Assembly (NCBI GenBank): GCA_963765495.1
Contig: CAVXWP010000001.1
Location: 1,120,001 to 1,184,000, forward strand
Direction: 5' to 3'
Origin: Blastocatellia bacterium
Lineage (GTDB): Bacteria; Acidobacteriota; Blastocatellia; UBA7656
Length of the DNA stretch: 64,000 nt
Shown here: in pieces, positions 3,321 through 64,000 of the stretch
Layout of the letters: each line of letters opens with the position of its first letter
Position numbering within the stretch: position 1 is the stretch's first letter
Program-made: the position numbers and the translations under genes
Notes under the pieces: generated by a model
Database searches by the model: none
Seen by the model: the letters and a program-made list of their open reading frames with translations, nothing else
What the model was told of the DNA's origin: nothing

Positions 3321-3420
3321 TTGATGCGTGAAGAGTGATTCGTCATTAACCAGGCTTGCAAGTTGTCTAAAACATGCAGCCTGCCTGAGAGTCACGTATC
3401 GCGCATCAAGAATCACGCGT
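3321..3420. repeat. Heptamer-armed hairpin element, GTGA/TCAC family, copy 1
   Basis: TGATGCG-TGAAGAG-TGATTCG left arm; TCACGTA-TCGCGCA-TCAAGAA-TCACGCG right arm; 52-nt core in reverse orientation; lies between convergent genes. Confidence 0.85.
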
Positions 3421-4908
3421 TACGTAAATTGCCTGCTGGCTATCTGCTTCGTTTACTTCTTCGGCGGCGCGATTGCCCGATTCCAGGGCTCCATTCATCC
3501 ATCCGTGCCACAGCGACGTATGCTCTCCGGCAAAATGTATAAGGCCTTCCGGGCGCTGGGCCGCAGGCAATAGCCCGGTTATCTGCCCGGGTTCGAAATA
3601 GGCGAATGCGCCTCGCGCCCATTCGTCTTCGTGCCATATCTGGCTCGTGCCCGATTCGTACTGGCTGTCGAGGCCGCCAAACAGATTTCCCATTCGGCGC
3701 AAAACCAGATTCTGCCGGTCCTTTTCGCTCATTGCTCCCAAATCGAGCGCCCGCTGCCCGCCGGTGTAGGAAGCGAGTATCCCTCGCTGGCCGCCTTGAA
3801 TCAGTGTGGGCGAATAGGTGTCCTGGATGTTCAGGTCCGTTATTCCGTAGCCGTCAAGCCCGTCCTGTTCCCATACGCGTTTGCGAAATTGCAGATAAGT
3901 GCGCGTGACCGGCGTCAGCTTGATCTCTGATATGGCTCGCTGTTTCTCTTCGGAAAACGAAGGCGAGACTTCTATTTCGCTGAGCAACGGAAACGGAAGA
4001 GTGCAGATGACGCGATCTGCCTCGATGGTTAAGACCTCGCCGTTGCGCAGGTAAGTTACCTTAACGCCAGTTTCATTCTGCTCCAGGGCGATGACCTGTG
4101 ATTTCTTCTTGAAGTTCTTTTTAACGCGTTGTTTTAGAGCCTTTGGCAACAGGTCGTTTCCCCCTACGATCTCATAAAAGACTCCGCCCGACGCAACCTG
4201 TTCAGTCACTACGCCGTCGAGCGCTGAAAAGGAATCTAGTCCGAATCCGAGAATGCCCAATTGCGAGGCGGCGATTATGGCAATCGCCCCGTCGGATGCG
4301 CCCTGATCGCGCAGTAATTGCTCGAGCGAAATATTGTCCAGGTCTCTTAAACTGTCGGGCGGCCAGCCCTCTTTTCGAGGATTGCCTACCTGCGCCATGA
4401 ATTCTCCCAGATAGAGCGCCGTCAAATTATAGATGCCAACTTCTCTCTCTCTCGATTTAAGGTTAAAGGGGACACTTGCCGCGCCGCCCGGACCTATGCG
4501 AAAGCGACTGCCTTGAATGTAGGCTACCGAATCAAGCCCGAATCTGACCGAAGGCTGAAGGAGCAATCCGAAATCCGTAGCATAGCCCCAGGTGAATGTA
4601 TGGTCTTGAGGGAAGCTGAGCGGACCGGCTTCCGCGTATTGCCCGTCGGCAAAATTTCTGAGAGTCCGCACTCTGCCGCCCGGTTTTTTCCGCGCTTCCA
4701 GAATGGTCACGTTATGCCCGGCGCGTTTAAGCTCGTAACCGGCGGCAAGCCCCGCCAGCCCCCCGCCGAGAATCACTACGTTTTTTGGCGGTCCGACCAG
4801 CTTTATTCCGCGTCTCTGAGCTCTTGATACATAAGGCATCAAGGCGAGCGCGGCGGCGCTGAGACTCGCTTGCCTGATAAATTCACGGCGATTGATGAGC
4901 TTCGACAT
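3406..4908 (-). CDS. Flavin monoamine oxidase / L-amino-acid oxidase family protein with Tat signal
   Basis: NRREFI twin-arginine signal; VVILGGGLAGLAAG FAD motif; LEARKKPGGR; FAGEHTS..GWMNGALESG; ATG at 4908 with AGGAGG RBS (ORF track starts at 4923). Confidence 0.9.
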   Translation of the reverse strand: MSKLINRREFIRQASLSAAALALMPYVSRAQRRGIKLVGPPKNVVILGGGLAGLAAGYELKRAGHNVTILEARKKPGGRVRTLRNFADGQYAEAGPLSFPQDHTFTWGYATDFGLLLQPSVRFGLDSVAYIQGSRFRIGPGGAASVPFNLKSREREVGIYNLTALYLGEFMAQVGNPRKEGWPPDSLRDLDNISLEQLLRDQGASDGAIAIIAASQLGILGFGLDSFSALDGVVTEQVASGGVFYEIVGGNDLLPKALKQRVKKNFKKKSQVIALEQNETGVKVTYLRNGEVLTIEADRVICTLPFPLLSEIEVSPSFSEEKQRAISEIKLTPVTRTYLQFRKRVWEQDGLDGYGITDLNIQDTYSPTLIQGGQRGILASYTGGQRALDLGAMSEKDRQNLVLRRMGNLFGGLDSQYESGTSQIWHEDEWARGAFAYFEPGQITGLLPAAQRPEGLIHFAGEHTSLWHGWMNGALESGNRAAEEVNEADSQQAIYVTRDS

Positions 4909-5136
4909 CCGGCCCCTCCTCATTTTTCGTTCACGTAATGCTATAACCTCAAGGGGCTCATTTCAAGCCTGCTCAATAGCTTATGGAGCGAGACTGTTGC
5001 AAAAGTCTTGTATTGCGCTGACTCGGCTTGAATCATTCTTTGAAACAACATCAAAGTATATGCGTGTAAGAGAGTGTCCGAATTCAAGAAGGCCGAGGCC
5101 GTTTCCCTGTTATTGTGGTTAAAAATGAACCGGTTG

Positions 5137-5145
5137 TGTTATGAT
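5137..5145 (+). promoter_or_regulatory. Putative extended -10 promoter element (TGtTATGAT) for the T2SS-like cluster
   Basis: TGn-TATGAT about 77 nt upstream of the ATG at 5222. Confidence 0.4.
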
Positions 5146-5221
5146 TTCGTTTGGCTGCGTATAGCCCCAGAACGCAAGCGCCCGGCTGCTACAGGCCGGG
5201 ATTCACAAAGAGTTCAATCTT

Positions 5222-6457
5222 ATGGCTGAATATGTTTGCCGGTTAGGCACGCCCACGGGCGAGGTAGTAACACGAACGATTGAGGCCACGGCAGAGCGTG
5301 ACCTGAGGACGAAACTCGAACGCGATGGGTTTCGTGTCTTTTCGATCTCGGGTTCGGGCGGGCAGAGCGTTCGCAAGGCATTCGGAGGCGAATCGGGTCA
5401 GCGCAAGATCAAGACGGAAGACTTTCTGCTCTTCAACCAGCAGTTATCGGCGCTGCTGCGCGCGGGTCTTCCGATCATTCAGGCGATAGGGATACTTCGC
5501 AAGCGCGTTCCAAACGAACGGCTGCGGCTGGTGCTCGAAGATGTCGAGGAAAAGATACGCGCGGGGCAGGCGCTGTCGCAGGCGTTCGCCGCGCAGGGCG
5601 ATGCCTTCCCGCGAATCTATATAGCTTCGATACTTGCGGGCGAGCGGTCAGGCTCGCTTGATGAAGTCCTGCTTCGATACGTCAGCTATCAAAAGACGAT
5701 CTCTGATGCACGGCGAAAGATCAAAAAATCGCTCGCCTATCCGATGGTGCTCGTGGGCGCTTCGATCATTCTCGTGATAGTGCTTTCGACTTACGTCATA
5801 CCGAAATTCATGCAGCTTTACAGTGGAGTGGGCGCGCAAGAGCTGCCCTTTATTACGGTCATGGTCGTAAGCACAGCCGAATTCGTCAGCAAGAATCTTT
5901 TGTGGATCGTGCCAAGCATATTAGGCTTTTTGATCTTCAGCTTTTTCTGGCGACGTACCCCGAACGGGCGGCTTACGATTGACCGATGGATTATGAAGTT
6001 GCCGATTGCGGGCGAAACCGTTCGCCAGCTTACCATAGCGCAATTCACGCGCAGTCTGGCCACGCTGCTTGCGGGCGGAATCACGCTGCCCGAATCCGTG
6101 GAAATTGCGAGCGAATCTATCACCAATCGCGCGCTCAGTCAGGCGAGCAACGGTGTGCTGGTAGGCATACGCGAAGGCCGCGCCTTCACCGACAGCCTCG
6201 CCGCCTCCGGCTGGGTGAGCGAACTTGCGCTCGATATGATCGGCGTCGGCGAACGTTCGGGCGCGCTCAGAGAGATGCTCGACGAGGTGGCCAATTTTTA
6301 TGACGCGGAGCTCGATGTGCGATTGAGCACGATAACGACATTTATCGAGCCGGTAGTGCTGGTCTTTATGGGCAGCCTGGTTATGACTATTCTGCTTGCC
6401 ATGTATCTGCCGCTCTTCAACATGATCGGCAACATGGGAGGCGGTGGAGCGCACTAA
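5222..6457 (+). CDS. Type II secretion system F family / PilC-like platform protein
   Basis: QQLSALLRAGLPI, AGERSGSLDEVL, LAYP, GERSGAL, AMYLPLF duplicated T2SSF motifs. Confidence 0.93.
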   Translation: MAEYVCRLGTPTGEVVTRTIEATAERDLRTKLERDGFRVFSISGSGGQSVRKAFGGESGQRKIKTEDFLLFNQQLSALLRAGLPIIQAIGILRKRVPNERLRLVLEDVEEKIRAGQALSQAFAAQGDAFPRIYIASILAGERSGSLDEVLLRYVSYQKTISDARRKIKKSLAYPMVLVGASIILVIVLSTYVIPKFMQLYSGVGAQELPFITVMVVSTAEFVSKNLLWIVPSILGFLIFSFFWRRTPNGRLTIDRWIMKLPIAGETVRQLTIAQFTRSLATLLAGGITLPESVEIASESITNRALSQASNGVLVGIREGRAFTDSLAASGWVSELALDMIGVGERSGALREMLDEVANFYDAELDVRLSTITTFIEPVVLVFMGSLVMTILLAMYLPLFNMIGNMGGGGAH

Positions 6458-6561
6458 GTGATTCGTGAAGAGTGATCGATGATCCGTGATTTTCAGGTAA
6501 GCCGCCTGTTATAGACATCTTGCATGTCTGGTAAATCATGGATCACCGATCACTCTTCACG
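6458..6561. repeat. Heptamer-armed hairpin element, GTGA/TCAC family, copy 2
   Basis: 6464-6492 and 6533-6561 are complementary at 27 of 29 positions; 52-nt core. Confidence 0.9.
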
Positions 6562-6587
6562 GTCAATATTTTGGGAAGCGAATTCGA

Positions 6588-12182: not shown

Positions 12183-12269
12183 GTGAAGCGCGATGCGTGA
12201 CTTTCAGGCAATCACCTGTTAAATAAGGTTCTCGCTGGCTTCATAAATCACGGATCACGGAACATGCAT
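12183..12269. repeat. Heptamer-armed hairpin element, GTGA/TCAC family, copy 3 (core subtype B)
   Basis: GTGAAGC-GCGATGC-GTGA left arm; TCACGGA-TCACGGA right arm; core TGACTTTCAGGCAATCACCTGTT. Confidence 0.75.
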
Positions 12270-17639: not shown

Positions 17640-17646
17640 AAACTGA

Positions 17647-17748
17647 TGAAGCGTGATGCATGACGGGTGATTTATCCGGGCTGCAAGTTATCTTTAACAA
17701 GCGGCCTGTCTGAAAATCACCCGTCACGCATCACGCATCACGAGTCAC
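17647..17748. repeat. Heptamer-armed hairpin element, GTGA/TCAC family, copy 4
   Basis: 17647-17673 and 17714-17740 are complementary at 25 of 27 positions; 52-nt core in reverse orientation; between gap and pgk. Confidence 0.9.
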
Positions 17749-21248: not shown

Positions 21249-21860
21249 ATGGGGCTGTTTCCGCGAGACGAGAAATACTTCGGCCTGCTCAGCCAACTGG
21301 CGGGCAAAGTTCGGCAGGGTGGCGAACTGTTTGTGAAGTTATTCCAGGATTACGAGAATCACGCCGGATACGCCGATCAGATCAAGCAGATAGAGTTGGA
21401 ATGCGATGATCTTGCGGCAAAGATCACGGCGAAGTTGAATTCAAGCTTTATTACGCCCATTGATCGAGAAGATATATTTCTGCTCGTCACGGAACTCGAT
21501 GACGTGATTGATATGACTAATGATCTGGCGCGCAGGCTTGAGACATACGGAGTGGCTGCGCCAAAGCCGGAAGCCATAGAGGTGGCCGGTCTTCTGGGCC
21601 GGGCCACGGCTGAGATCGAGAGCGCGTTCCTTATGCTTGAGCAACACGAAGCAATGAACGAACACCTCCGAACTATAAGCCAGCTTGAGAAACGCGCCGA
21701 CTCGCTTTTCAGCGATGCGATTCGCCGTCTCTTCAGAGAAGAGAAGGACCCCATCGAAGTCATAAAATGGAAATCCATCTTTGAAGAACTCGAAGAATCT
21801 GTTGACCGATGCAAGGATGTGGCCGAGGTGCTTGAGGCCGTCATGGTTAAAAACAAATGA
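21249..21860 (+). CDS. DUF47 / PhoU-like phosphate transport regulator
   Basis: FITPIDREDI, LEKRADS, LEESVDRCKDVA; directly upstream of pit. Confidence 0.93.
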   Translation: MGLFPRDEKYFGLLSQLAGKVRQGGELFVKLFQDYENHAGYADQIKQIELECDDLAAKITAKLNSSFITPIDREDIFLLVTELDDVIDMTNDLARRLETYGVAAPKPEAIEVAGLLGRATAEIESAFLMLEQHEAMNEHLRTISQLEKRADSLFSDAIRRLFREEKDPIEVIKWKSIFEELEESVDRCKDVAEVLEAVMVKNK

Positions 21861-21972
21861 TCCGTGATCCGTGATTGTCAGGCAGGCCATCTGTTAAAGA
21901 TGACTTGCAAACCTGCCGTATCAGCATCACGCATCACGTATCACGCATCACGTATCACGTATCACCTATCAC
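21858..21972. repeat. Heptamer-armed hairpin element, GTGA/TCAC family, copy 5
   Basis: (TGATCCG)2 left arm starting at the DUF47 stop codon; 52-nt core; about seven TCACG(C/T)A-type units on the right. Confidence 0.9.
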
Positions 21973-21990
21973 TTCTGGAGGTCCAATCCT

Positions 21991-23022
21991 ATGACAACGC
22001 TGATGGCGTTTGTCGTAACTATAATCCTAGTCGCCCTCATTTTTGATTACGTCAACGGATTTCACGACGCAGCCAATTCGATTGCGACCGTAGTATCAAC
22101 GAGAGTGCTTTCGCCGGGGATAGCTGTAATCTGGGCGGCATTTTTCAATTTTATTGCCTTCCTGGTATTCGGGACCCGTGTGGCCAAAACCATCGGCGGC
22201 GACATGATCAACATCAAACTTATTGCCGAAGAGTGGCAGTTGTGGGCATTGATGTGTGGCCTCCTGGGGGCGATCATCTGGAATATTATTACCTGGTATT
22301 ACGGTCTGCCGTCGAGTTCCTCGCACGCGCTCATAGGCGGATACGCAGGCGCGTCCGTGGCCGCGCATGGCGGTTTTAGCGGTCTCTTTATAGCCACAGG
22401 ATGGATAAAGACAATAGCCTTCATATTCATCTCGCCGCTTGTCGGCATGTTTCTGGGATTTTCGTTTATGGTCGCCATAATGTGGATTTTCCGCCGTCGT
22501 TCGCCCGACCGTGTTGACAGCATATTTCGCAAGATGCAATTGATGTCGGCGGCGCTTTTCAGCCTCGGACATGGCGGAAACGACGCGCAAAAGACCATGG
22601 GCATCATTGCCGCCGTACTCGTAGCCTCAAATATCAATGCCGGTGCGACAAAAGAGATACCGCTCTGGGTGGTCCTGGTCTGCCACGCGGCCATCGGGCT
22701 GGGAACCCTTTCAGGCGGCTGGCGCATAGTCCATACGATGGGGTCGCGCATAACCAAACTCAAGCCCGTGGGCGGGTTCGCCGCTGAATCCGCCGGAGCT
22801 ACCACCATGTTTATGGCTACCTTTGGCGGCATACCCGTAAGCACTACGCATACGATAACGGGAGCCATCATGGGCGTAGGCTCTACCCGAAGGCTTTCCG
22901 CCGTGCGATGGGGGGTCGCAAGGACGGTCATCTGGGCCTGGGTACTGACCATACCTCTTTCGGCGCTGATTGCTGCCCTCTGCTTTTACCTCGTTCAATT
23001 CGCCGATAAAGCGATAAAGTAG
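21991..23022 (+). CDS. pit: Inorganic phosphate transporter, PiT family
   Basis: GFHDAANSIAT, GLPSSSSHA, HGGNDAQKTMG, PVSTTH. Confidence 0.95.
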   Translation: MTTLMAFVVTIILVALIFDYVNGFHDAANSIATVVSTRVLSPGIAVIWAAFFNFIAFLVFGTRVAKTIGGDMINIKLIAEEWQLWALMCGLLGAIIWNIITWYYGLPSSSSHALIGGYAGASVAAHGGFSGLFIATGWIKTIAFIFISPLVGMFLGFSFMVAIMWIFRRRSPDRVDSIFRKMQLMSAALFSLGHGGNDAQKTMGIIAAVLVASNINAGATKEIPLWVVLVCHAAIGLGTLSGGWRIVHTMGSRITKLKPVGGFAAESAGATTMFMATFGGIPVSTTHTITGAIMGVGSTRRLSAVRWGVARTVIWAWVLTIPLSALIAALCFYLVQFADKAIK

Positions 23023-23127
23023 TCCGTAGTCCGTGGTCCGTTGCCCGCCGTTTGCCGCAGAGTATTCGTTATCAGGAATTCGCAATTTTACAACACACCA
23101 CGAACCACGGATCACGGACAAAGGACA
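23020..23127. repeat. Heptamer-armed hairpin element, TAGTCCG/ACGGAC family
   Basis: TAGTCCG-TAGTCCG-TGGTCCG left arm starting at the pit stop codon; CCACGAA-CCACGGA-TCACGGA-CAAAGGA right arm. Confidence 0.7.
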
Positions 23128-23522: not shown

Positions 23523-25262
23523 ATGTCGGCTAAACTGGGAGAGACCCTCCTAAAAGACAATCTAATAACGCCGCAGCAACTCAAAGAGGCGCTTGACTAT
23601 CAACGAGTCAACGGTGGCCGGCTCGCCTCTACGCTGGTTAAGCTCGGCATGCTATCGGATGAAGAAGTCACTGCCGTGCTGTCTCGCCAGTACGGCGTGC
23701 CCTCGGTCAATCTGGATCTGTTCGAAATTGATCCTGCGGCAGTGGCGCTCGTGCCTCAAGAGACTGCCGAACGTTACTGCGTGCTTCCGCTCTCTCGTGT
23801 CGGGGCTACGCTCACACTTGCCATGGTGGACCCGACCAATGTCTTTGCCATAGACGATATAAAGTTTATGACCGGGCTCTCGGTAGAGCCTGTCGTGGTC
23901 AGTGAAAACACTCTGCTTGCGGCAATCGCAAAGTATTACGGCACGTCACGCGAGATCGAACTTGCCCGCGTGATGGAAGACCTCGTCGCCGAGACCACAG
24001 GTAAGAACGATTACGGCGAGGAACTGGACCAGCTTGAACTTGAAGACGAAGAAGAGATAGACCTCGAAAATCTTGAGAGGATGGCCGAGGACGCTCCCGT
24101 CGTCAAACTTGTAAACGTCATACTGGTTGACGCGCTTCGACGCGGCGCTTCCGATATTCATATCGAGCCCTACGAAAAAGAGTTCCGCGTGCGCTTCCGC
24201 ATGGACGGTGTGCTTTACAACATAATGAATCCGCCGCTCAAGATGCGCGATGCGCTCACGTCAAGGATGAAGATCATGGCGCGACTCGACATCGCCGAAA
24301 AGCGTCTTCCGCAGGACGGGCGCATAAAGCTCAGAGTGCGACTCGACAATCGTTCGCGCGAACTGGATTTTCGCGTCTCGACACTGCCGACCATCTTCGG
24401 CGAAAAGATGGTGCTGCGCCTGCTCGATAAAGAGAACCTGCGGTTAGATATGACCAAGCTTGGCTTCGAAGCTGAAAGCCTTGACAAATTCAAACGCAAC
24501 ATCTCTAAACCATACGGCATGGTGCTTGTCACAGGGCCTACGGGGTCGGGCAAGACCTCTACGCTTTATTCCGCGCTTCAGAGCCTGAACACGCCGGAAA
24601 CAAATATAATGACCGCCGAAGACCCCGTAGAATTCAATCTGCCCGGCGTCAATCAGGTGCAGATGAAAGAGTCTATCGGGCTCAATTTCGCAGCCGCCCT
24701 GCGTTCGTTCCTCAGACAGGACCCGAACATCATACTGGTAGGTGAAATCCGGGATTTCGAAACCGCCGAGATAGGCGTCAAGGCCGCGCTCACAGGCCAT
24801 CTGGTCTTATCAACGCTTCATACCAACGACGCGCCTTCGACCATCAGCCGTTTAATGAACATGGGTATTGAGCCGTTTCTTGTGGCTACGTCTGTGAACC
24901 TGATTCAGGCTCAACGCCTCGTGCGCAGGATATGCAAGGATTGCAAGGTCGACCTGGCCGCGCCCGATGAGGCGATGATTGACGTGGGGTTTGCCGCAAG
25001 CGAAGTGGGCAATATAAAGACATTCAAGGGAACCGGATGCCCCAGTTGCAACGGGACCGGATACAAGGGCCGCGTGGGGCTCTATGAAGTTATGGAGATA
25101 ACCGACGAGGTGCGCGAATTGATTCTGGTCGGGGCGTCGGGCCTCGAACTGCGCCGCAAGGCGATTGAAGAGGGAATGCTGACCCTCAGAATGAGCGGCC
25201 TTGAAAAGATACGTCAGGGACTGACAACCATCGAGGAAGTGGTGAGAGAAACAGTGAAATGA
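23523..25262 (+). CDS. pilB: Type IV-A pilus assembly ATPase PilB
   Basis: MshEN-like N-terminus, ASDIHIEP, GPTGSGKTS, LRQDPNIILVGEIRD, tetracysteine motif; pilB-T-C-S-R synteny. Confidence 0.96.
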   Translation: MSAKLGETLLKDNLITPQQLKEALDYQRVNGGRLASTLVKLGMLSDEEVTAVLSRQYGVPSVNLDLFEIDPAAVALVPQETAERYCVLPLSRVGATLTLAMVDPTNVFAIDDIKFMTGLSVEPVVVSENTLLAAIAKYYGTSREIELARVMEDLVAETTGKNDYGEELDQLELEDEEEIDLENLERMAEDAPVVKLVNVILVDALRRGASDIHIEPYEKEFRVRFRMDGVLYNIMNPPLKMRDALTSRMKIMARLDIAEKRLPQDGRIKLRVRLDNRSRELDFRVSTLPTIFGEKMVLRLLDKENLRLDMTKLGFEAESLDKFKRNISKPYGMVLVTGPTGSGKTSTLYSALQSLNTPETNIMTAEDPVEFNLPGVNQVQMKESIGLNFAAALRSFLRQDPNIILVGEIRDFETAEIGVKAALTGHLVLSTLHTNDAPSTISRLMNMGIEPFLVATSVNLIQAQRLVRRICKDCKVDLAAPDEAMIDVGFAASEVGNIKTFKGTGCPSCNGTGYKGRVGLYEVMEITDEVRELILVGASGLELRRKAIEEGMLTLRMSGLEKIRQGLTTIEEVVRETVK

Positions 25263-25317
25263 TTTTATATTTTGGATTTTGGATTGGCGGCTAATCTAAA
25301 ATCTAAAATCCAAAATC
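25261..25317. repeat. Heptamer-armed hairpin, ATTTTGG/CCAAAAT family
   Basis: GATTTTATATTTTGGATTTTGGATT-ggcggct-AATCTAAAATCTAAAATCCAAAATC between pilB and pilT. Confidence 0.85.
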
Positions 25318-25329
25318 CCGGGAGGGAAA

Positions 25330-26496
25330 ATGCCAGAGATTGTTTTGAGTGATTTGTTGAGGAAGATGATCGAGATGGGCGGGTCTGACCTGCACATTAC
25401 GACCAATTCTTCGCCAATGGTCCGGGTGCACGGTGTGCTCAGGCCGCTTGAATTTGGGGAGCTATCCCCGGCCGATACGAAGCAACTGGCCTATTCTGTG
25501 TTGACCGACGCGCAGAAGCATCGCTTCGAAGAGACGCTGGAACTCGATTTCTCGTTCGGCATCAAGGGGCTGTCGCGTTTTCGCGCAAACATCTTCAACC
25601 AGCGGGGCGCGGTCGGCGCGGTATTTCGATCAATCCCGTACGAAATAAAATCATTTGAAGAGTTGGGACTGCCGGCGGTGATCGAAAAGCTTTGCGAGAA
25701 GCCACGCGGCTTGATTCTGGTCACAGGGCCTACGGGGTCGGGCAAATCGACTACGCTCGCGGCTATGATAGACAAGGTCAATCGTGACCGACACGAGCAC
25801 ATCATAACGGTCGAAGACCCGATTGAGTATCTGCATTCGCACAAGAGCTGCCTGGTGAATCAGCGTGAAGTACACGCCGACACACACTCGTTTTCAAACG
25901 CGCTCAGAGCGGCGCTTCGCCAGGACCCGGATGTTGTGCTCATCGGCGAAATGCGCGACCTCGAAACCACCGAGACCGCGCTCCGCATAGCCGAGACCGG
26001 CCACCTGACCTTTGCCACTCTGCACACCAATTCCGCGGCGTCTTCGATCAACCGCGTGATAGACATTTTCCCCGCGCACCAGCAGTCACAAATACGAACG
26101 CAACTTTCGATGGTGCTCGAAGGGATTGTCACTCAGGCCCTGCTTCCGAAAGCAAACGGACAGGGTCGCGTGCTTGCTATGGAGATACTGATTCCGAATT
26201 CCGCCATAAGAAACCTTGTGCGCGAAGATAAGGTCCACCAGATTTACTCGATGATGCAGACGGGCCAGGAAAAATACGGAATGCAGACCTTCAATCAGGC
26301 GCTTGCGAGCCTCTATTTCAAGCGGCAGATAACGCTTGAGATGGCTATGATGCGTTCGGGAGTACCGGACGAACTTCAGGATTTGATAAGTCGCGGGGCC
26401 GCCGCTCTGCAAACCGGCCAGCCGCAAATGGGAGCCCGGTCCGGCCAGGCGCAAGGCAACAGGCCGCTTTCGCCGCTCGGACGTGTGGGAAGATAG
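25330..26496 (+). CDS. pilT: Type IV pilus retraction ATPase PilT
   Basis: SDLHI, GPTGSGKSTT, ALRQDPDV, AETGHL, AIRNLVRE (AIRNLIRE motif), GMQT. Confidence 0.97.
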   Translation: MPEIVLSDLLRKMIEMGGSDLHITTNSSPMVRVHGVLRPLEFGELSPADTKQLAYSVLTDAQKHRFEETLELDFSFGIKGLSRFRANIFNQRGAVGAVFRSIPYEIKSFEELGLPAVIEKLCEKPRGLILVTGPTGSGKSTTLAAMIDKVNRDRHEHIITVEDPIEYLHSHKSCLVNQREVHADTHSFSNALRAALRQDPDVVLIGEMRDLETTETALRIAETGHLTFATLHTNSAASSINRVIDIFPAHQQSQIRTQLSMVLEGIVTQALLPKANGQGRVLAMEILIPNSAIRNLVREDKVHQIYSMMQTGQEKYGMQTFNQALASLYFKRQITLEMAMMRSGVPDELQDLISRGAAALQTGQPQMGARSGQAQGNRPLSPLGRVGR

Positions 26497-26500
26497 CATA

Positions 26501-26628
26501 AGGGATGAGGGATGAGGGATGAGGGATGAAAAGGACTCTTAGTAATTATCATATTGATTACGGAACTGCCTGTATGACATTGCGTGGTCAGGCTCCTTTT
26601 CATCCCTCATCCCTCATCCCTCATCCCT
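26501..26628. repeat. Heptamer-armed hairpin, GGGATGA/TCATCCC family, copy 1
   Basis: Perfect 35-bp inverted repeat, A(GGGATGA)4AAAGGA at 26501-26535 versus 26594-26628, with a 58-nt spacer. Confidence 0.95.
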
Positions 26629-26681
26629 CAAGAGTTGCCCCTTTAGCAGAATGCTAAACAAAAAATCAGTGAGGTTGTAAA

Positions 26682-38273: not shown

Positions 38274-38343
38274 GGTATTCATCTGCGGGCAATAAACGTC
38301 AATTCTTTTCGCAGCGTAATTTGAACGAAAGGGTTGCGCTAAC

Positions 38344-38442
38344 AGGCCACGGATGAACGCGGATCAGACGGATTTACGCGGATTAATCCCAATAGGGGCT
38401 GATCCGCGTAAATCCGCTAAAATCCGCGTTCATCCGTGGCCT
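38344..38442. repeat. Long hairpin built from 9-10-nt CGGAT units
   Basis: AGGCCACGGATGAACGCGGAT (38344-38364) is perfectly complementary to 38422-38442; inner pairing CGGATTTACGCGGAT / ATCCGCGTAAATCCG. Confidence 0.9.
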
Positions 38443-38489
38443 ATTTCAACTTTCCTGATCTAGATTTTTGAAAACCGATCAGAATTATT

Positions 38490-42127: not shown

Positions 42128-42236
42128 AAGGGATGAGGGATGAAAAAGAGTCTAAGAACAGAATCCGATAAATTGACTTGGCCAAATATCGGGATGTGTC
42201 CTTAGAGTCCGTTTCATCCTTCATCCTTCATCCTTT
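42128..42236. repeat. Heptamer-armed hairpin, GGGATGA/TCATCC(C/T) family, copy 2
   Basis: (GGGATGA)2 left arm, (TCATCCT)3 right arm; inner GGACTCT(T/A)AG shared with copy 1 in opposite orientation. Confidence 0.85.
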
Positions 42237-42237
42237 C

Positions 42238-43057: not shown

Positions 43058-43146
43058 GTGATTCGTGACGCGTGATTTGTGACCATTAAACAATTCGCTT
43101 ATACAAGATCGGTTGTTTGAAAATTACGCATCACGAATCACGCGTC
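43058..43146. repeat. Heptamer-armed hairpin element, GTGA/TCAC family, copy 6
   Basis: GTGATTC-GTGACGC-GTGATTT-GTGA left arm; TTACGCA-TCACGAA-TCACGCG right arm. Confidence 0.85.
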
Positions 43147-46333: not shown

Positions 46334-47035
46334 ATGAGCACATCCGACCAGGCTTTGTTGAAACTTGAAGCCGTTACAAAGGTTTTCTACACCGACGAAG
46401 TTGAAACACACGCGCTCGCAGGGATACATCTTGAGATAAATCAGGGAGAATACATCTCCATCTCCGGCCCGTCAGGTTGCGGCAAATCCACCTTGCTTTC
46501 CATACTTGGATTGCTCGATTCGCCGACGGACGGCAATTACTGGCTTGGCGGCAAACCCGTAGCCGATCTGCCGCTTGCCGAGCGCGCCCGCATTCGCAAT
46601 CGAGAGGTTGGTTTCATATTCCAGAGTTTCAATCTAATAGGCGATCTTTCGGTTTACGAGAATGTGGAATTGCCGCTCACCTATCGCGGCATGCGAGCAA
46701 GCGAGCGCAAGGAAAAAGTGCGCGCGGCGCTCGAACGAGTAGGCATGTCGCACAGGGCAAAACATCTGCCTGCCCAGTTGTCGGGCGGTCAGCAGCAGCG
46801 CGTAGCCGTTGCGCGCGCCGTGGCGGGCGACCCTCTGATACTGCTTGCCGACGAGCCTACCGGCAACCTCGACTCTACAAACGGCGAAGCGGTCATAGAT
46901 CTGTTGAAAGAGCTTCACGAAACGGGCGCAACCATCTGCATGGTCACACACGATCCTCGCTATGCCCGGCACGCCGACCGCACCGTTCACCTGTTTGACG
47001 GACGTGTGCTTGAAGAAAAGACTATGGCTGCCTGA
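46334..47035 (+). CDS. ABC transporter ATP-binding protein (MacB/LolD-like)
   Basis: GPSGCGKST, FQSFNL, LSGGQQQRV, LADEPTGNLD, VTHD. Confidence 0.96.
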   Translation: MSTSDQALLKLEAVTKVFYTDEVETHALAGIHLEINQGEYISISGPSGCGKSTLLSILGLLDSPTDGNYWLGGKPVADLPLAERARIRNREVGFIFQSFNLIGDLSVYENVELPLTYRGMRASERKEKVRAALERVGMSHRAKHLPAQLSGGQQQRVAVARAVAGDPLILLADEPTGNLDSTNGEAVIDLLKELHETGATICMVTHDPRYARHADRTVHLFDGRVLEEKTMAA

Positions 47036-47140
47036 TGCGCGATGCGTGATACGTGATTCGTGACCATTGAGGAAATGACTTTTACTTCTTAATTGCAAAT
47101 CTCACGAATCACGTATCACACATCACGTATCACACATCAC
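47033..47140. repeat. Heptamer-armed hairpin element, GTGA/TCAC family, copy 7
   Basis: Starts at the ATPase TGA; GTGATAC-GTGATTC-GTGA mirrored by TCAC-GAATCAC-GTATCAC. Confidence 0.9.
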
Positions 47141-47170
47141 TTTCCTGCCGACGCGTGGAGGCAATCCCTG

Positions 47171-49621
47171 ATGGATAGCTTACTGCAAGACCTTCGTTAT
47201 GGTTGTCGAATGCTCCTGAAGAAACCGGGCTTTACGGCTGCCGCGGTGCTGGCCCTCGCCCTGGGGATTGGCGCGAATACGGCGATCTTTAGCGTCATCA
47301 ACGCGTTATTACTCAGACCTCTGCCGTACCCGGATGCCGACAGGCTTGCGCTCGTCTGGGAAAAAGATCTAAAGACGGGCCGGCAGGTGTCAAACAATTA
47401 TGCTGACTATCTCGACTGGCAGCAGCAAACCCAATCATTCGAGGAACTGGCGGCGGCGGGCGATTCGGATTTTACCCTTTACGGCAATGACGCGGCCGAA
47501 CGCATCGACGGCGAGTGGGTAACGGCAAATTATTTTAACGCGCTCGGGATACTGCCCGTTGAGGGGCGCGCCTTTCTTCCCGATGAAAACGCTACGCCCG
47601 GCACGCATCCGGTGGTTATTTTAAGCCATGGTCTGTGGCAAAGCCGCTTCGGAGCGGACCGGAACCTTATCGGCAATACGGTAAATATAAACGGGATCAC
47701 TCTGACCGTGGTCGGAATAATGCCCGAAGGCTTTCGCGGGATAAGCGGCAAATCAGAGGTGTGGATTCCCTTTATGATGTTCGAAGCCGCAAACCCGATT
47801 CTCGCGCAGTACAAAATACTGAGCACACGTTCGACGGGCTGGCACATGGTCATAGGCCGCCTCAAACAGGGGATCACTCCCAGTCAGGCGCAGTCGGAGA
47901 TGGACGCAATCGCGGAGCGGCTCGGCGAACAATACCCAAAAACAAATGCCACCAGAGGCGCTATGGTAAGATCGGCCCGCGAAGAGCTTGTAGGCGATCT
48001 GCGACCCGCATTGCTCGTGCTGTTCGGGGCAGTCGGATTCGTGCTGTTGATAGCCTGCGCAAACGTGGCGAATCTCTTCCTCGTTCGCATGGCTGCGCGT
48101 GGGAAAGAGATGGCTATCCGTGTAGCTCTGGGCGCGAGGCGCGGGCGCTTGATACGCCAGTTGCTCACCGAAAGCCTGCTGATTTCGCTTGCAGGCGGCG
48201 CGCTCGGATTGTTACTCGCCTATTGGGGCGTGAAGTTTCTTGTAGTGTTGATTCCGGTAGAGATTCCGAGCTTTTTCTCCGTGACGATTGACGGTGGGGT
48301 TCTCGCCTTCACCTTCGCGATCTCGATTTTTACGGGCGTGATTTTTGGGCTTGCGCCCGCGACCGGAGCGGTAAAGCCCGACCTGAACGAGTCGCTGAAA
48401 GAGGGAAGTCGGACCGTGGGCGCAAGCGCGCGAGTCCGCAATCTTCGCAGTCTGCTTGCGGTCGCCGAAATTGCGCTTGCGCTCGTCCTTCTCGTAGGCG
48501 CGGGGCTTATGCTAAGAAGCTTTCAGCGTATCCGCCAGTTCGATCCGGGGTTTAATCCCGAAAATCTCCTTACAATGCGGTTCGACGTACCCAGTACGAA
48601 GTACTCCGAGTCGGAGCAGGCAGCGATCCGTCATCGCGTCCTTGAACGCGTGGCGAGTTTGCCGGGCGTGGAATCGGCGGCCATCTCTTCACACATATTT
48701 TTTGGAGGCGGATACCTGACGGGCAAGAATTCTGTCGAGTCAAGCGACGTGCCAACGCCCGATGAAGGTATATCAACTTTTCAGCAGTATCTGAGTCCAA
48801 ACTTTTTCCAGACCCTCGGTATCCCTCTTTTGAAGGGGCGCGATTTCACCGACCAGGACAACGCCGAATCTCCAAAGGTAGCCATCATCGGACAGACCTT
48901 TGCCGAGCGTTACTGGCCGGGTGAAGACCCCATAGGCAAACGCATAAAGCCGGGCCGACCCGATTCAAATAATGGCTGGATCGAGATCATAGGCGTTGTG
49001 AGCGATGTAAAACCGCGAACGCGCACGACCGACGCGAATAACTTCCCGCAGGTATATATGCCGCTGGCGCAATGGCCCGGCTGGCGTCCTGCTCTTATGG
49101 TTCGCACACGGACTGCTCCTGAAAAACTTGTTGGGAGTCTGCGCGCGGCTGTTCAGGAAATCAGCCCCGATATACCGGTCTACGAAATCGCCGCGATGCA
49201 CAAACTGCTCGCTGACAACTCGGCAGATACCCGGTTTATCGCGTTGCTGATGGGGCTGTTTGCGGGGCTTGCCGTGATAATGGCGGCGGTTGGAATCTAC
49301 AGCGTAATAGCCTATTCCGTCAGCCAGCGCACACGCGAAATAGGCATACGCATGGCGCTCGGCGCTCAAAGAATGGATGTGCTCCGGCTGGTAGTAGGGC
49401 AGGGAATAATACTGGCCCTTGCCGGGGTGGGGATCGGTCTCGGCGCGGCTCTCGCTTTGACGCGCGTCGTAGCGAGTCTGCTTTACGAAGTGAGCGCAAC
49501 CGATCCCACTATTTTTGCGGTCGTATCGCTTGGGCTAACGGCAGTGGCCTTTCTTGCCAGCTATATCCCCGCTCGAAGGGCCGCGAGGGTAGACCCGATG
49601 GTTGCGCTTCGCTACGAGTAG
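47171..49621 (+). CDS. ADOP-type duplicated MacB-like ABC permease
   Basis: LQDLRYG.R..PGF..LALGIGANTAIFS, LIACANVANL, QRTREIGIRMALGA, DPMVALRYE; ATG at 47171 with GGAGG. Confidence 0.94.
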   Translation: MDSLLQDLRYGCRMLLKKPGFTAAAVLALALGIGANTAIFSVINALLLRPLPYPDADRLALVWEKDLKTGRQVSNNYADYLDWQQQTQSFEELAAAGDSDFTLYGNDAAERIDGEWVTANYFNALGILPVEGRAFLPDENATPGTHPVVILSHGLWQSRFGADRNLIGNTVNINGITLTVVGIMPEGFRGISGKSEVWIPFMMFEAANPILAQYKILSTRSTGWHMVIGRLKQGITPSQAQSEMDAIAERLGEQYPKTNATRGAMVRSAREELVGDLRPALLVLFGAVGFVLLIACANVANLFLVRMAARGKEMAIRVALGARRGRLIRQLLTESLLISLAGGALGLLLAYWGVKFLVVLIPVEIPSFFSVTIDGGVLAFTFAISIFTGVIFGLAPATGAVKPDLNESLKEGSRTVGASARVRNLRSLLAVAEIALALVLLVGAGLMLRSFQRIRQFDPGFNPENLLTMRFDVPSTKYSESEQAAIRHRVLERVASLPGVESAAISSHIFFGGGYLTGKNSVESSDVPTPDEGISTFQQYLSPNFFQTLGIPLLKGRDFTDQDNAESPKVAIIGQTFAERYWPGEDPIGKRIKPGRPDSNNGWIEIIGVVSDVKPRTRTTDANNFPQVYMPLAQWPGWRPALMVRTRTAPEKLVGSLRAAVQEISPDIPVYEIAAMHKLLADNSADTRFIALLMGLFAGLAVIMAAVGIYSVIAYSVSQRTREIGIRMALGAQRMDVLRLVVGQGIILALAGVGIGLGAALALTRVVASLLYEVSATDPTIFAVVSLGLTAVAFLASYIPARRAARVDPMVALRYE

Positions 49622-49622
49622 C

Positions 49623-49710
49623 GAGTTTTGAGTTTTGAGTAGGTGGTTCCCGGCTCCGGCGCTTTACTGACAACTGTGAACTCAAAACTCAAAACTCAAA
49701 ACTCAAAACT
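49623..49710. repeat. Heptamer-armed hairpin, GAGTTTT/AAAACTC family
   Basis: GAGTTTT-GAGTTTT-GAGT left arm; (ACTCAAA)4 right arm; between the two permease genes. Confidence 0.88.
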
Positions 49711-49730
49711 GATTGAAGGAGTGGTCACAG

Positions 49731-53332: not shown

Positions 53333-53409
53333 TAGACAGGATTTACAGGATTAGATTGGATTTGACAAGATTCCTGCTCAATCTTTTTTAACCCTGTAAA
53401 TCTTGTCTA
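53333..53409. repeat. Hairpin built from 9-nt ACAGGATT-type units
   Basis: TAGACAGGATTTACAGGATTA (53333-53353) pairs with TAACCCTGTAAATCTTGTCTA (53389-53409); between convergent genes. Confidence 0.85.
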
Positions 53410-58562: not shown

Positions 58563-58565
58563 TAG

Positions 58566-60854
<2,289 letters not shown>

Positions 60855-60867
<13 letters not shown>

Positions 60868-61394
60868 CCGCAATCTCTTGCGGCCTGCACGTGCCGATGG
60901 CGTGAATTTGTAGACGGCAGCCGCGCGCCGGAAAACAGATGAATGTATGCATATACCTGGCCTCTGTGATGAGAGGCGTGTGTCAAGGTATTGATCAAGA
61001 TTTCGCCGATGGTAGCCCCCGTAGCATTCGGAAAATATATCTTCTTGGGCAGGTCCTGGTCTGTCAGGCGAGCAAAGGCTACCCGTCGCGTGCGCGCCGT
61101 TTCTTCCAGATAATCGGCTATATGCAAGCGTGTGGGAAGGGCCTCGCGTGTTATCCACTCGAAAGGCTCTTCCCAGAAATTGCTCGTAATACCGTTGAAT
61201 GCGTATTCGATGCTGCCGCCTATGTGGCTGATAAGTTCTCCACACGAATAGATGTGAATGAAGTCGGCGCTCTCAAACGGCTTCCAGTAAAGCCGGTCTT
61301 CCGGGATCAGGGCGAGCGCCTCCAGGAGGTTGCTGTGTATAGTCTCTAATTCGGAGTTCAGGACTTCGACCGTCGCCAATTTTACCTCACTCAA
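60855..61394 (-). CDS. DinB family protein
   Basis: LYWKP..SCGELISHI..THASHHRGQ metal-binding His pattern; GTG start. Confidence 0.85.
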
Positions 61395-61735: not shown

Positions 61736-61755
61736 TATATTCAATCGACAGCAAA

Positions 61756-62757
61756 TCAGTGCAACGTGCGGTTCGGATCGTCGAATCCGAATATATCGCG
61801 ATAGGCGACCGCTGCCGACGAGACTATCCACGGCATCGTGACAAATATGCCGACGAAACAGGCAAAAGTTCCGCCCACGGCTATTGTCGAAAAGACAAGA
61901 CCGACAACCCACCACATCAGCGCATCGCGCGAAAAGATCAATCGCCCTACCTCGTTGACCGCCGCTGCTACGTCCATCTTGCGCTCCAGTATCAGCGGCA
62001 GCGTGAATCCGAGCAGCATGGTCAAAATCGGTACCACGATGAAAGCCACTATGGCAAATAGCCCCCCGTTCTTGCTTGCGCCAGTGAGACCGCCATATAT
62101 GACCGCGCTTATCAGGTAGGCAAGAAACGCCTGAAAGAATCGGCCTTCCCAGTTGAACAGATCGTGCATCTCGGGGCGCTCTCCGCGCATGGCCTTAAAC
62201 GCCATGCGAAAAAGCCCCATCAGCAACGGCCCGGCCAGTATGCCTATCGAAAGCACGCTAAATAGACCGCCCAGAAATGAAGCAAGCGACATAAGCGCCG
62301 CATTTTCTTTGTAGAGGTGCCATCCGCCTGAAAGCCAGTCGCCCAGAGAAATATTATTGTATCCGGTACCGGGATTGATCGGGGCCGGCTGCTGCGGCTG
62401 TACGTACTGCGGCTGCGCGTAGGGTGGTTGCGTGTACTGCGGCTGCGCGTAGGGTGGGGGTTGAGGCTGTTGAGGCGGTTGATAATATCCCGCCGGAGGC
62501 GCGTAATTTGGGTTAGGTGGCCGCTCGGGATATGGAGCGGGATTATCACGCACCGGCATAGTCGGGCGCTGCTGGTCGCCGGTTACCCGCTTTTCCGGCG
62601 GCAATCGCCACGTGCCCGCATCTTCTGTGGGAGAAGTGTCGGGCGGCAACCGCATCGTGTCGCTCTCCTCTTCTGTCAGCTGGATGGGCATGCCGCATCG
62701 TTTGCAGAAGTTCACTCCCGGTTCAAGATCGGCTCTACAATTCGGACAATAATTCAT
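61756..62757 (-). CDS. Zinc-ribbon, Pro/Gln-rich membrane protein
   Basis: CPNC..CKRCG N-terminus, PQY-rich linker, 4-5 TM C-terminus. Confidence 0.85.
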   Translation of the reverse strand: MNYCPNCRADLEPGVNFCKRCGMPIQLTEEESDTMRLPPDTSPTEDAGTWRLPPEKRVTGDQQRPTMPVRDNPAPYPERPPNPNYAPPAGYYQPPQQPQPPPYAQPQYTQPPYAQPQYVQPQQPAPINPGTGYNNISLGDWLSGGWHLYKENAALMSLASFLGGLFSVLSIGILAGPLLMGLFRMAFKAMRGERPEMHDLFNWEGRFFQAFLAYLISAVIYGGLTGASKNGGLFAIVAFIVVPILTMLLGFTLPLILERKMDVAAAVNEVGRLIFSRDALMWWVVGLVFSTIAVGGTFACFVGIFVTMPWIVSSAAVAYRDIFGFDDPNRTLH

Positions 62758-62879
62758 TCGTCTGGCTCCGCCTTAGCTTAACGATGAATGGCTGTTTATT
62801 GTTGCTTGCTTACACCCGTTCGAATTTGAGTGATATAAAGACACTCGCAATTTCTCGAACGATGATGATTTAGATTGTA

Positions 62880-63920
62880 TCACACGCGACCGATAGAGAC
62901 AGTCTGCGCCCCTTCGACAATGCGACCTATATCGTAGTATGTCTCACCTAGCTCGTCCAGATGCCGTCGCAGGCCGGCGGCATCATCGGCGCTCGTGACT
63001 ACGACCATGCCTATGCCCATGTTAAATGTTCTGTACATCTCCGGTTCGGGCACGTTGCCCAAGCGGGCGAGCAGGTCATAGACGGGCAGGACGGGCCAGG
63101 AGCCTTGAATGATACGGGCCGCAACACCTCTGGGAAGGATACGAGGAAGGTTTTCAAGCAATCCGCCGCCCGTGATATGAGCGAGACCCTTGATCACGCC
63201 CGATCCGATTAATCCTTCGAGCGCGCCGAGATAGCTTTTATGCGGCTTGAGCAACTCTTCGGCGACCGTGCAGCCAAACTCCTCAACCTGTGTATCGGGC
63301 GCATAGCCAGCCACTTCAAACAGTAATTTGCGCGCGAGGCTATAGCCATTTGTGTGCAGCCCCACCGAAGGCAGACCTGTCAGCACGTCTCCCACCTCGA
63401 TGCGCGAGCCGTCAATGATCTCTGAGCGATCAACCACGCCCACAATAAATCCGGCGATATCATATTCGCCGTCTGCATAAAATCCGGGCATCTCGGCCGT
63501 TTCGCCGCCAAGCAATGCGCATCCCGTTTCGCGGCATCCACGCGCAAGCCCTTCGATCACCTTTTCGATGGTGTCAGGCACTAGACGTCCGGCAGCGATG
63601 TAATCAAAGAAAAAAAGCGGGCGCGCGCCCTGCACAAGTATATCGTTCACCGAGTGGCACACCAGGTCGTACCCCACCGTGTTGTGAATGCCGGTCATAA
63701 AGGCCACACGGAGTTTTGTCCCCACTCCATCGGCAGAGGAAACAAGCACGGGTTCGCGCATGTCTCCGAAGTCGGCGCGAAACATGCCGCCGAACGAACC
63801 TATCTCGGTCATCACACCCGGCGTGAAAGTATCTCGCGCCAGACGCCTGATGCGCGCCACGGCATCGTTTGCGGCGTCTATATCAACGCCTGCATCGCGA
63901 TAACTGATCTCTTCGGTCAT
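62880..63920 (-). CDS. purM: Phosphoribosylformylglycinamidine cyclo-ligase (AIR synthetase)
   Basis: YRDAGVDI, DGVGTK, GGETAEMPG, HTNGYSL, HITGGG, TFNMGIG. Confidence 0.99.
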   Translation of the reverse strand: MTEEISYRDAGVDIDAANDAVARIRRLARDTFTPGVMTEIGSFGGMFRADFGDMREPVLVSSADGVGTKLRVAFMTGIHNTVGYDLVCHSVNDILVQGARPLFFFDYIAAGRLVPDTIEKVIEGLARGCRETGCALLGGETAEMPGFYADGEYDIAGFIVGVVDRSEIIDGSRIEVGDVLTGLPSVGLHTNGYSLARKLLFEVAGYAPDTQVEEFGCTVAEELLKPHKSYLGALEGLIGSGVIKGLAHITGGGLLENLPRILPRGVAARIIQGSWPVLPVYDLLARLGNVPEPEMYRTFNMGIGMVVVTSADDAAGLRRHLDELGETYYDIGRIVEGAQTVSIGRV

Positions 63921-63940
63921 AAGTTATTGCCAATCCGTAA

Positions 63941-64000
63941 GTGATACGTGAAGAATGATACGTGATGCGTGATTTACCCGCCTTGCAAGTCGCCCTTAAC
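63941..64000. repeat. Heptamer-armed hairpin element, GTGA/TCAC family, copy 9 (truncated by the window edge)
   Basis: GTGATAC-GTGAAGA-ATGATAC-GTGATGC-GTGATTT, then the core start ACCCGCCTTGCAAGTCGCCCTTAAC. Confidence 0.85.

Follow-up and report, generated by a model that had tools for sequence, protein, structure and literature searches.

The intervening sequences (IVSs) of ribosomal RNA (rRNA), for which helix 45 is a classical site, are cut by RNase III within their terminal stem in Salmonella, Leptospira and Coxiella (PMC4990558). In the parts of Warrier et al. 2016 drawn on here, the Coxiella helix-45 IVS has a 28-bp terminal stem within which RNase III cuts, and three tandem GACAGAT heptamers precede its S23p open reading frame (ORF); the terminal inverted repeats are described there apart from the three direct heptamers, and not as heptamer-array arms (PMC4990558). 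Here we analyze a 64,000-nt stretch of the genome of a Blastocatellia bacterium (C1:1120001-1184000, hereafter the window; genome of 7.3 Mb, 54% G+C, 17 contigs), which carries nine hairpin elements with arms of tandem GTGANNN heptamers. These nine elements belong to one class, GTGANNN, within a superfamily of palindromic cassettes found across the genome, in which two inverted arrays of 3-6 tandem heptamers (a 21-40 bp stem) surround a variable loop. On balance we think it probable that the cassettes are IVS-type hairpins that have reached gene ends by copying and that form stems of the RNase III type.

Heptamer repeats at gene ends are known from Xanthomonas, where, in the parts of Rehm et al. 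2015 and its supplement used here, GGGAATC heptamers prefer four units, form 70-75 inverted pairs, lie at most 50 bp from stop codons or overlap them, are rare between divergent genes, and are interpreted as quadruplex formers (PMC4692102). In the supplement, repeat 15 overlaps the beginning of XCC0516 and is six bases away from XCC0517, so that one repeat abuts a four-helix-bundle gene; these parts of the Xanthomonas account draw no tie to four-helix-bundle genes or rRNA inserts (PMC4692102). The elements studied here resemble Xanthomonas GGGAATC and cyanobacterial GGGGAYT and STRR repeats in their tandem heptamers, their roughly four units and their frequent inverted pairs, but the GTGANNN class differs from them in being unable to form quadruplexes and in having a conserved 52-nt loop. 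Within the literature outside subscription journals and the TIGR02436 family comment, we found nothing that joins heptamer hairpins, four-helix-bundle genes and IVSs, and within the literature outside subscription journals no description of a GTGANNN/52-nt family; flanking repeats, which an initial annotation of the window mentions for TIGR02436-type genes, may be noted in the TIGR02436 curators' comment.

GTGANNN hairpins of the window

The initial annotation listed nine sites with GTGANNN repeats on the left and TCAC repeats on the right. Reading the sites directly, we found at all nine that the left arm is made of tandem GTGANNN units and the right arm of NNNTCAC units:

3306..3424: copy 1, GTGANNN hairpin between convergent genes, 52-nt core on the minus strand (3345-3394)
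6458..6562: copy 2, GTGANNN hairpin, 52-nt core on the plus strand (6487-6538)
12183..12262: copy 3, GTGANNN arms around a second loop type (core2)
17642..17748: copy 4, GTGANNN hairpin between gap and pgk, 52-nt core on the minus strand (17668-17719)
21855..21974: copy 5, 52-nt core on the plus strand (21872-21923), unequal arms of about 3 vs. 8 units
43058..43141: copy 6, GTGANNN arms around a loop unrelated to the 52-nt core
47029..47140: copy 7, GTGANNN arms around a unique loop
60757..60868: copy 8, GTGANNN arms around core2 in reverse orientation
63941..64000, continuing beyond the window end: copy 9, 52-nt core on the minus strand at 63970-64021 (window coordinates)

The gap-free alignment of four 52-nt cores reported earlier holds, as does the fit of copy 9 to the same core, which extends past the window end, and the core2 loop common to copies 3 and 8 recurs genome-wide in 29 copies. 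The start reported as common to copies 6 and 7 is indeed shared by these two, but has no further family members in the genome. Seven copies lie between co-directional genes of the ORF list, as had been noted for most of them, with one in a convergent context (copy 1) and one at the window end. Stop codons stand at or within the arms: the left arms of copies 1 and 2 begin directly 3' of the stops of ORFs 282-3305 (TAG) and 5222-6457 (TAA), the first units of copies 5 and 7 contain the TGA stops of ORFs 21249-21860 and 46334-47035, and the right arms of copies 1 and 8 contain the stops of minus-strand ORFs 3406-4923 (TCA at 3406-3408) and 60855-61394.

An inverted-repeat finder returned arms of 21-34 nt with 88-94% complementarity at 6464/6533, 17642/17714, 43058/43121, 47033/47102 and 60757/60834. 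Folded as RNA, copies 2, 4, 7 and 8 reach -49 to -62 kcal/mol with z-scores of -9.0 to -9.7 (copy 4, -9.7; copy 7, -9.6), and 0/200 shuffles were as stable; copy 2, the sole copy folded on both strands, is equally stable on each (z -9.1 plus, -9.0 minus). Copy 5 folds more weakly (z -3.3) because its arms are unequal. Set against rRNA IVSs, which are stem-loops formed by terminal inverted repeats of about 20-30 bp in the apical loop of helix 9, 25 or 45, the window hairpins agree in their stems (arms of 21-35 nt, z -9 to -14.6) and not in their location, the nine copies being intergenic. The elements are unmatched in Rfam at gathering score, where only a tRNA passes, and a permissive Rfam search of 3000-27000 gave only sub-threshold microRNA-hairpin matches, at 26495-26635 on another hairpin; the initial annotation, too, did not recognize the architecture as a named family.

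A genome-wide superfamily of heptamer hairpins

Genome-wide, we counted 1383 period-7 arrays (filtered for shorter periodicities), compared with 42, 214, 148, 297, 56 and 47 arrays of periods 5, 6, 8, 9, 10 and 11 (unfiltered). These fall into classes, with GTGATGC/GTGATTC-like arrays (about 500) followed by AGGGATG (115), CCCCCGG (100), ACTGCCT (98), AAATCTC (95), AAAACTC (80) and AAAATCC (36). Requiring two arrays of at least 21 nt with complementary units and a loop below 200 nt, we obtained 332 strict hairpins of at least 7 heptamer classes, namely GTGANNN (142), AGGGATG (43), ACTGCCT (39), CCCCCGG (30), AAAACTC (28) and smaller classes. Together with 164 copies of the 52-nt core, these counts make the dispersed family far larger than the nine copies from which it had been proposed. 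The GTGA arm comes first in 142/142 GTGANNN hairpins. Arms most often hold four or five units (3 units, 134 arms; 4, 242; 5, 230; 6, 48; 7 or more, 10), and arm lengths are equal in 210 of the 332 hairpins and differ by one unit in 89, so the arrangement of tandem heptamers in convergent pairs of about four units is that described for Xanthomonas. Within the GTGANNN unit, the four constant positions pair across the stem in >90% of copies and the middle variable base in 43-54%, compared with 34-40% when arms are swapped between copies.

Five window hairpins of four other classes had been omitted from the earlier list:

23018..23118: GTAGTCC / ACCACGG class, directly 3' of the stop of ORF 21991-23022
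25262..25319: GATTTTG class with a 6-nt loop, beginning at the stop of ORF 23523-25262
26496..26632: AGGGATG class with 35-nt arms that are 100% complementary, beginning at the stop of ORF 25330-26496; z -14.6
42129..42237: AGGGATG / TTCATCC class
49616..49713: GAGTTTT class, at the stop of ORF 47093-49621; z -4.2

The classes at 25262, 26496 and 49616 match the arms around four-helix-bundle genes at C1:951934, C7:193647 and C1:1070960, respectively, and the last is also that of an insert in 23S rRNA (see below).

The range of classes bears on whether these are repeats forming G-quadruplex or other non-B DNA, as proposed for Xanthomonas GGGAATC and Nostoc GGGGAYT. The parts of Rehm et al. 2015 used here show quadruplexes for the G-rich consensus, with the same four-unit preference (PMC4692102), and two classes in this genome are G-rich (GGGGCCN, AGGGATG). 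However, GTGATGC, GAGTTTT, GATTTTG and AGGCAGT lack G-tracts but have the same architecture, unit number and position as the rest, and the idea was already inapplicable to the GTGANNN class, whose GTGATGC and GTGATTC units contain no G-tract; we regard it as highly improbable.

Placement at gene ends

With a crude gene set (the longest non-overlapping ORFs of at least 80 aa; 5853 genes, 88% of the genome), we placed 211 hairpins between co-directional, 78 between convergent and 32 between divergent genes, and 10 inside an ORF, against a background in which convergent and divergent contexts are equal. Where a gene 3' end faces a hairpin (380 cases), its stop is -25 to +10 nt from the outer array edge at 77% (median 0), and inside the array at 52%, whereas distances on the gene-start side vary widely (median 21, interquartile range -27 to 80). 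An array is found within 30 nt of 640/5853 gene 3' ends vs. 346/5853 gene starts. The position near or over stop codons and the rarity between divergent genes recall the G-rich strand of the Xanthomonas repeats, as reported in the parts of that paper used here (PMC4692102).

The arm sequences themselves supply stops. A stop codon occurs in the 5'-arm unit of 14/28 merged heptamer classes (this genome and relatives) and in the 3'-arm unit of 5/28, and the four most abundant merged classes all have one in the first arm; since 7 is not divisible by 3, a run of three units closes all three frames.

Such placement is also what would be expected of host-owned 3'-end hairpins, ordinary intercistronic or terminal stem-loops (mRNA stabilizers, attenuators or bidirectional terminators) that selection maintains at each site and whose stems drift to heptamers by replication slippage, with nothing mobile. 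Tight stop-codon placement and the depletion of divergent gene pairs speak for this possibility, as do the variable number of units per arm, which slippage predicts, and the precedent of Clostridium, in which intergenic stem-loops set subunit stoichiometry according to the part of the source used here (PMC4423207). Against it, T-tracts are not enriched after the stems (10.7% vs. 10.5% background), and a terminator scan performed at chance level (25 found vs. 22.4 +/- 5.3 expected) with none of the elements flagged. On these two results we reject canonical terminators; orthologous sites bear on the remainder of the idea and are treated below.

Four-helix-bundle genes between heptamer arrays

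Among inverted array pairs whose loops measure 200-600 nt, three contain an ORF of about 120 aa with a TIGR02436 score of 89-120 bits (cut-off 24), and all four TIGR02436 genes of the genome lie between inverted heptamer arrays, each with a heptamer of its own (GGGGCCA, GATTTTG, GAGTTTT, AGGGATG). The loop of a cassette can be a short passenger such as the 52-nt core, almost nothing, a nested repeat, or a TIGR02436 (S23p / Avd-like) gene. Each of the four heptamer classes also has tens of ORF-less hairpins in the genome, and the unique parts of the four bundle-gene cassettes are single-copy, with only the arrays recurring.

TIGR02436 was detected in 33/41 genomes searched (this genome, G000, and 40 relatives) and in 4/5 distant genomes reached via GTGATNC loci, and a GTGAATC-armed four-helix-bundle cassette is present in the relative G035 (L010). 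At 49 bundle-gene loci (this genome, 26 relatives, and 19 from one acidobacterial, one Chloroflexi and one verrucomicrobial genome), an array stands upstream at 29, downstream at 35, on both sides at 27, on both sides with complementary units at 23, on at least one side at 37, and on neither at 12. The statement in the initial annotation that such genes are flanked by heptamer repeats was thus right, for all four genes here and, on at least one side, for most loci overall.

Protein and heptamer diverge together: bundle-protein identity is 0.43, 0.44, 0.36, 0.32, 0.28 and 0.23 at heptamer distances of 0 to 5 (37 loci, 666 pairs; Spearman -0.31, p = 0.0003 by label permutation). In one pair, taken as cross-phylum, a bundle protein of this family shares 82% identity with one of a Blastocatellia genome, and their arms differ by a single base. 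A cruder test of same-class bundle pairs vs. other pairs reached only p = 0.08. In samples of 80-100 kb, four genomes with 12-21 TIGR02436 copies carry 10, 22, 26 and 29 arrays per 100 kb (18.9 in this genome), compared with 0, 2.4, 5.0 and 6.2 in four genomes without the gene, a comparison that is small (4 vs. 4 genomes) and made among related genomes.

The bundle protein of this genome is homologous to PDB 2GSC, which is XCC0516 of Xanthomonas campestris (E = 2.7e-25); according to the part of Warrier et al. 2016 used here, this crystallized homologue is a homopentamer of four-helix bundles (PMC4990558). The homology to PDB 2GSC and a weak model match (30 bits, cut-off 80) also recall Avd of diversity-generating retroelements. 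The match is below cut-off, however, and the genes lack a neighboring reverse transcriptase as well as template and variable repeats; eight RVT_1 matches occur in the genome, and none, on a survey that did not study the matches individually, was seen beside a four-helix-bundle gene.

A pentameric protein suggests a further explanation, in which the arrays are protein-binding sites, the heptamers being putative recognition units for the bundle protein or another multimer (one per subunit) and the hairpin being secondary. Arms mostly of 4-5 units alongside a homopentameric homologue (PMC4990558, the part used here), the co-divergence of protein and flanking heptamer, the few arrays in genomes without the gene, and the retention of the four constant GTGANNN positions while the middle variable base pairs in only about half of copies all fit this explanation. 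However, this genome contains no cognate gene for the GTGANNN class, one genome without TIGR02436 (G026) still has five arrays of one class, and co-divergence is expected from co-inheritance alone, and we hold such binding arrays to be quite unlikely as the primary explanation.

A heptamer hairpin in 23S rRNA

Both 23S rRNA genes of the genome are 3133 nt long, against a model of 2925 positions, with the same GAGTTTT/AACTCAA-armed hairpin of about 100 nt in each. Aligned to the 23S rRNA of two relatives (an assembled copy was present in 2/10 relatives' genomes examined), the insert replaces the tip of a short plain hairpin, with flanks conserved on both sides, and these sequences therefore provide a filled and an empty version of one site. 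We take this site to be helix 45, judging by the conserved flanks and the E. coli map rather than by a numbered alignment. We read the elements as IVS-type because the same kind of cassette forms this presumed helix-45 insert of both 23S genes.

The likeness to IVSs extends to several features: an extended stem-loop stands in place of a hairpin tip, terminal inverted repeats are similar in length (28 bp in Coxiella), an S23p / four-helix-bundle ORF is an optional content (in this genome in four cassettes, none of them of the GTGANNN class), tandem heptamers precede the ORF in the Coxiella IVS (PMC4990558, the part used here), and the helix-45 insert of this very genome is made of one of its own heptamer classes. 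The window copies differ in being intergenic at stop codons and not in rRNA, in numbering hundreds per genome, and in mostly lacking an ORF.

As a separate observation, the 23S gene of the relative G002 (L285, 993-4428) measures 3436 nt, about 500 nt over the model, and has neither tandem repeats nor an insert at the helix-45 site.

The 52-nt core as a passenger loop

Iterated nhmmer searches of the 7.3-Mb genome converged on 164 copies of the 52-nt core, 81 on the plus and 83 on the minus strand, extending to the whole genome the earlier remark that both orientations occur. Mean pairwise identity is 0.68 with a maximum of 0.96, a maximum from which no copy appears recent. RNAalifold found no consensus fold in the core alignment, the strongest mutual-information pairs were not Watson-Crick and represent subfamily signals only, and in two candidate core helices the paired fraction equaled the shuffled expectation at every position. 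Core orientation relative to co-directional flanking genes is likewise unbiased (45 same, 49 opposite).

A covariance model, an approach proposed in the initial annotation, was built here from the core and two arm units and returned at least 125 matches in this genome, but only weak matches in 4/40 relatives (all of other genera), and 7 such loci that we inspected had GTGANNN arms around unrelated, often short, loops. With no covariation, no orientation bias and confinement to this genome, the core therefore behaves as a decaying passenger sequence and not as an RNA motif or promoter. It is one loop type of one heptamer class and not the defining feature of the superfamily, in which loop families track heptamer class. 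We also observed that the core is unevenly distributed over contigs, with 51 copies on C1 (1.3 Mb), 5 on C2 (0.6 Mb) and 1 on C3 (0.33 Mb).

Turnover at orthologous sites

The gap-pgk interval, suggested earlier as a place to compare filled and empty sites, was examined in 29 genomes of the same family, all of other genera. Heptamer-armed hairpins occur there in about half (10 by a strict automated rule applied to entire 4-kb loci, about 14 by eye), with heptamers as diverse as GTGATGC, GAGTGCT, GTCCGTA, GAGGATT, GTTACTG and CAGCGGT, among others; in three relatives (L062, L076, L088) the arms have an 8-nt period, so that 7 is the rule and not an absolute. About ten genomes have a plain hairpin or nothing at this site, including the two genomes of the family that lack TIGR02436. 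Target-site duplications, for which the initial annotation had suggested such a comparison, show no excess at element edges. Among metagenome sequences scanned with the gap protein for close relatives, none exceeded 73% identity.

At this site, L065 and L066, from two species of one genus, differ in one arm. Their loop and right arm are orthologous, and the left arm consists of GTGATGC units in one and of a long GAGTGCT/GAGTAAT/GAGTGAT run in the other, an array that, judging from the sequences, appears to have drifted by single-base steps and then expanded. Among copies in this genome, unit number varies between the two arms and between copies with near-identical loops, and arms therefore change faster than loops, as slippage predicts. 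For the orthologue of ORF 25330-26496, arrays lie upstream in 12/27 genomes and downstream in 8/27, and in two species of one genus the upstream classes differ at the same site while the downstream class is the same.

Beyond the family, GTGATNC arrays occur, among the matches listed, in Chloroflexota, Acidobacteriota, Verrucomicrobiota, Xanthomonadales, Desulfococcaceae and others, and a strict pattern identified 17 GTGA...TCAC hairpins and 1 in reverse order among 80 listed GTGATNC loci.

These comparisons cut both ways for host-owned hairpins drifting by slippage. A stem-loop of whatever sequence follows gap in most of 30 family genomes, and the L065/L066 arm appears to drift by single-base steps as its loop stays orthologous, both of which such hairpins would predict. 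They would not predict the same 52-nt loop at 164 unrelated sites in random orientation, a few heptamers common to dozens to hundreds of sites in one genome, different heptamer classes at one site in two species of one genus, or the same heptamer with the same polarity in distant phyla. We therefore consider a wholly host-owned origin unlikely.

Transposases and mobility

REP/REPIN elements are thought to act on mRNA stability. The hairpins share with them abundance, an intergenic and palindromic character and frequent location at gene 3' ends, but their stems are tandem repeats and not a single imperfect palindrome, and no Y1 transposase is associated. With MITEs (miniature inverted-repeat transposable elements) such as Correia elements they have in common short, non-coding, multi-copy sequences with inverted ends and lineage-specific bursts. 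They differ from MITEs in showing no target-site duplication and no parent insertion sequence, and their coding relatives carry only a non-transposase four-helix-bundle gene.

A REP/REPIN system mobilized by a RAYT (Y1 HUH) transposase, or MITEs belonging to a classical insertion sequence, would account for dispersed intergenic palindromes in a genome with two Y1_Tnp genes. Neither Y1 gene adjoins a heptamer hairpin, however: for one of them no array occurs within 1.5 kb, and the second has only a lone array at a distance of about 1.4 kb. One of the two lies within another insertion sequence, and one is flanked by its own GTAG-type palindromes. Longer array-flanked copies, in which an HUH/RAYT transposase might have been expected, enclose only four-helix-bundle genes, in agreement with the earlier remark that no transposase adjoins the elements, and direct repeats of at least 4 nt flank 3.3% of elements vs. 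3.1% when shuffled, a test weakened by fuzzy element edges. We give this explanation almost no credence.

Separately, a RAYT-like Y1 transposase at G000 C17:143990-144640 has GTAG-type palindromes on both sides, and the palindromes together with this gene are a separate REP system in the same genome. A palindrome related to the GTAG type sits in a heptamer hairpin at C7:112199-112548.

Other repeats in the window

An inverted repeat at 53333-53409, between ORFs 52393-53328 and 53388-54335, has 30-nt arms that are 80% complementary with loosely 7-nt ACAGGAT-like units, and may be a degenerate member of another class. A non-heptamer hairpin repeat with units like CGGATTTACGCGGAT lies at 38341-38445; repeats of this type are also nested in heptamer-hairpin loops elsewhere in the genome, where they define a cluster of 15 loops, for the most part from ACTGCCT hairpins. 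At 34711-34796, an 18-nt tandem repeat of 4.8 copies lies within ORF 33607-35610.

Interpretation

The initial annotation left the choice between a mobile element and an mRNA signal. The evidence favors both at once, because copies spread, settle precisely at stop codons, and in one case sit in a 23S hairpin loop, a place in which inserts of this kind are known to be RNase III substrates; the mechanism of spread and the RNA processing are inferred. In the scheme that we think probable, cassettes would increase in number by copying within a lineage and pass from phylum to phylum as whole cassettes, and the copying would leave no duplication and prefer gene ends or existing hairpin tips. Cassettes would settle at gene 3' ends, abutting or replacing the stop codon, and in the apical loops of RNA hairpins. 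The first arm met by the ribosome usually carries a stop, and stops in all frames would let a cassette insert at a gene end, or slightly within it, without harm. After settling, arms would grow and shrink by slippage. Transcribed intergenic copies would yield the same 21-40 bp duplex as the rRNA IVSs cut by RNase III, and in mRNA may act as a hairpin or barrier for intercistronic or 3'-end processing and stability, working on either strand, with cleavage by RNase III and any benefit to the host being putative.

Several observations weigh against IVS-type cassettes that spread by copying. Besides the lack of target-site duplication, complementarity of the flanks outside elements shows only a weak excess (15% vs. 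10%), and no core copies are identical or near-identical, giving no sign of current activity. Short hairpins as simple deletion derivatives of bundle-gene cassettes are ruled out, given that only the arrays recur, and GTGANNN, the most abundant class, encloses no bundle gene in this genome. In other phyla, 0/80 GTGATNC loci have a bundle gene within 300 nt of the array. Co-inheritance by itself can account for the joint divergence of protein and heptamer, and the difference in array density comes from few and related genomes. A hairpin of some kind persists after gap in nearly all relatives, which fits a host function as well as a target preference. Finally, sense and antisense folds are alike in stability (107 vs. 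104, p = 0.42), with no G-U signature of RNA-level selection.

A bolder extension, which we offer as speculation and regard as rather unlikely, would make the TIGR02436 / S23p pentamer a sequence-specific trans-acting factor of pan-bacterial hairpin cassettes, each paralogue reading its own heptamer, one unit per subunit, and driving the copying or homogenization of arms onto gene 3' ends and rRNA loops. One unit per subunit of a pentamer would explain arms of 4-5 units. If this were true, classical rRNA IVSs, the unexplained excess of heptameric repeats in many bacteria and the orphan four-helix-bundle family would be three faces of one mobile system.

For the organism, about a tenth of gene ends (640/5853 crude ORFs) bear an array. 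For annotation, half of the genes adjacent to a hairpin end at a repeat-supplied stop codon, which means that the arrays shape the C-termini of proteins and probably operon processing too. The GTGANNN/52-nt elements are a real, abundant and undescribed class, and their main value lies in the link that they expose. In the searchable literature, rRNA IVSs with an S23p ORF, heptamers near stop codons, and a bundle family so far without a function are three separate threads; this genome unites them in one architecture, and thereby offers a testable system for the origin and spread of IVSs and for the role of S23p.

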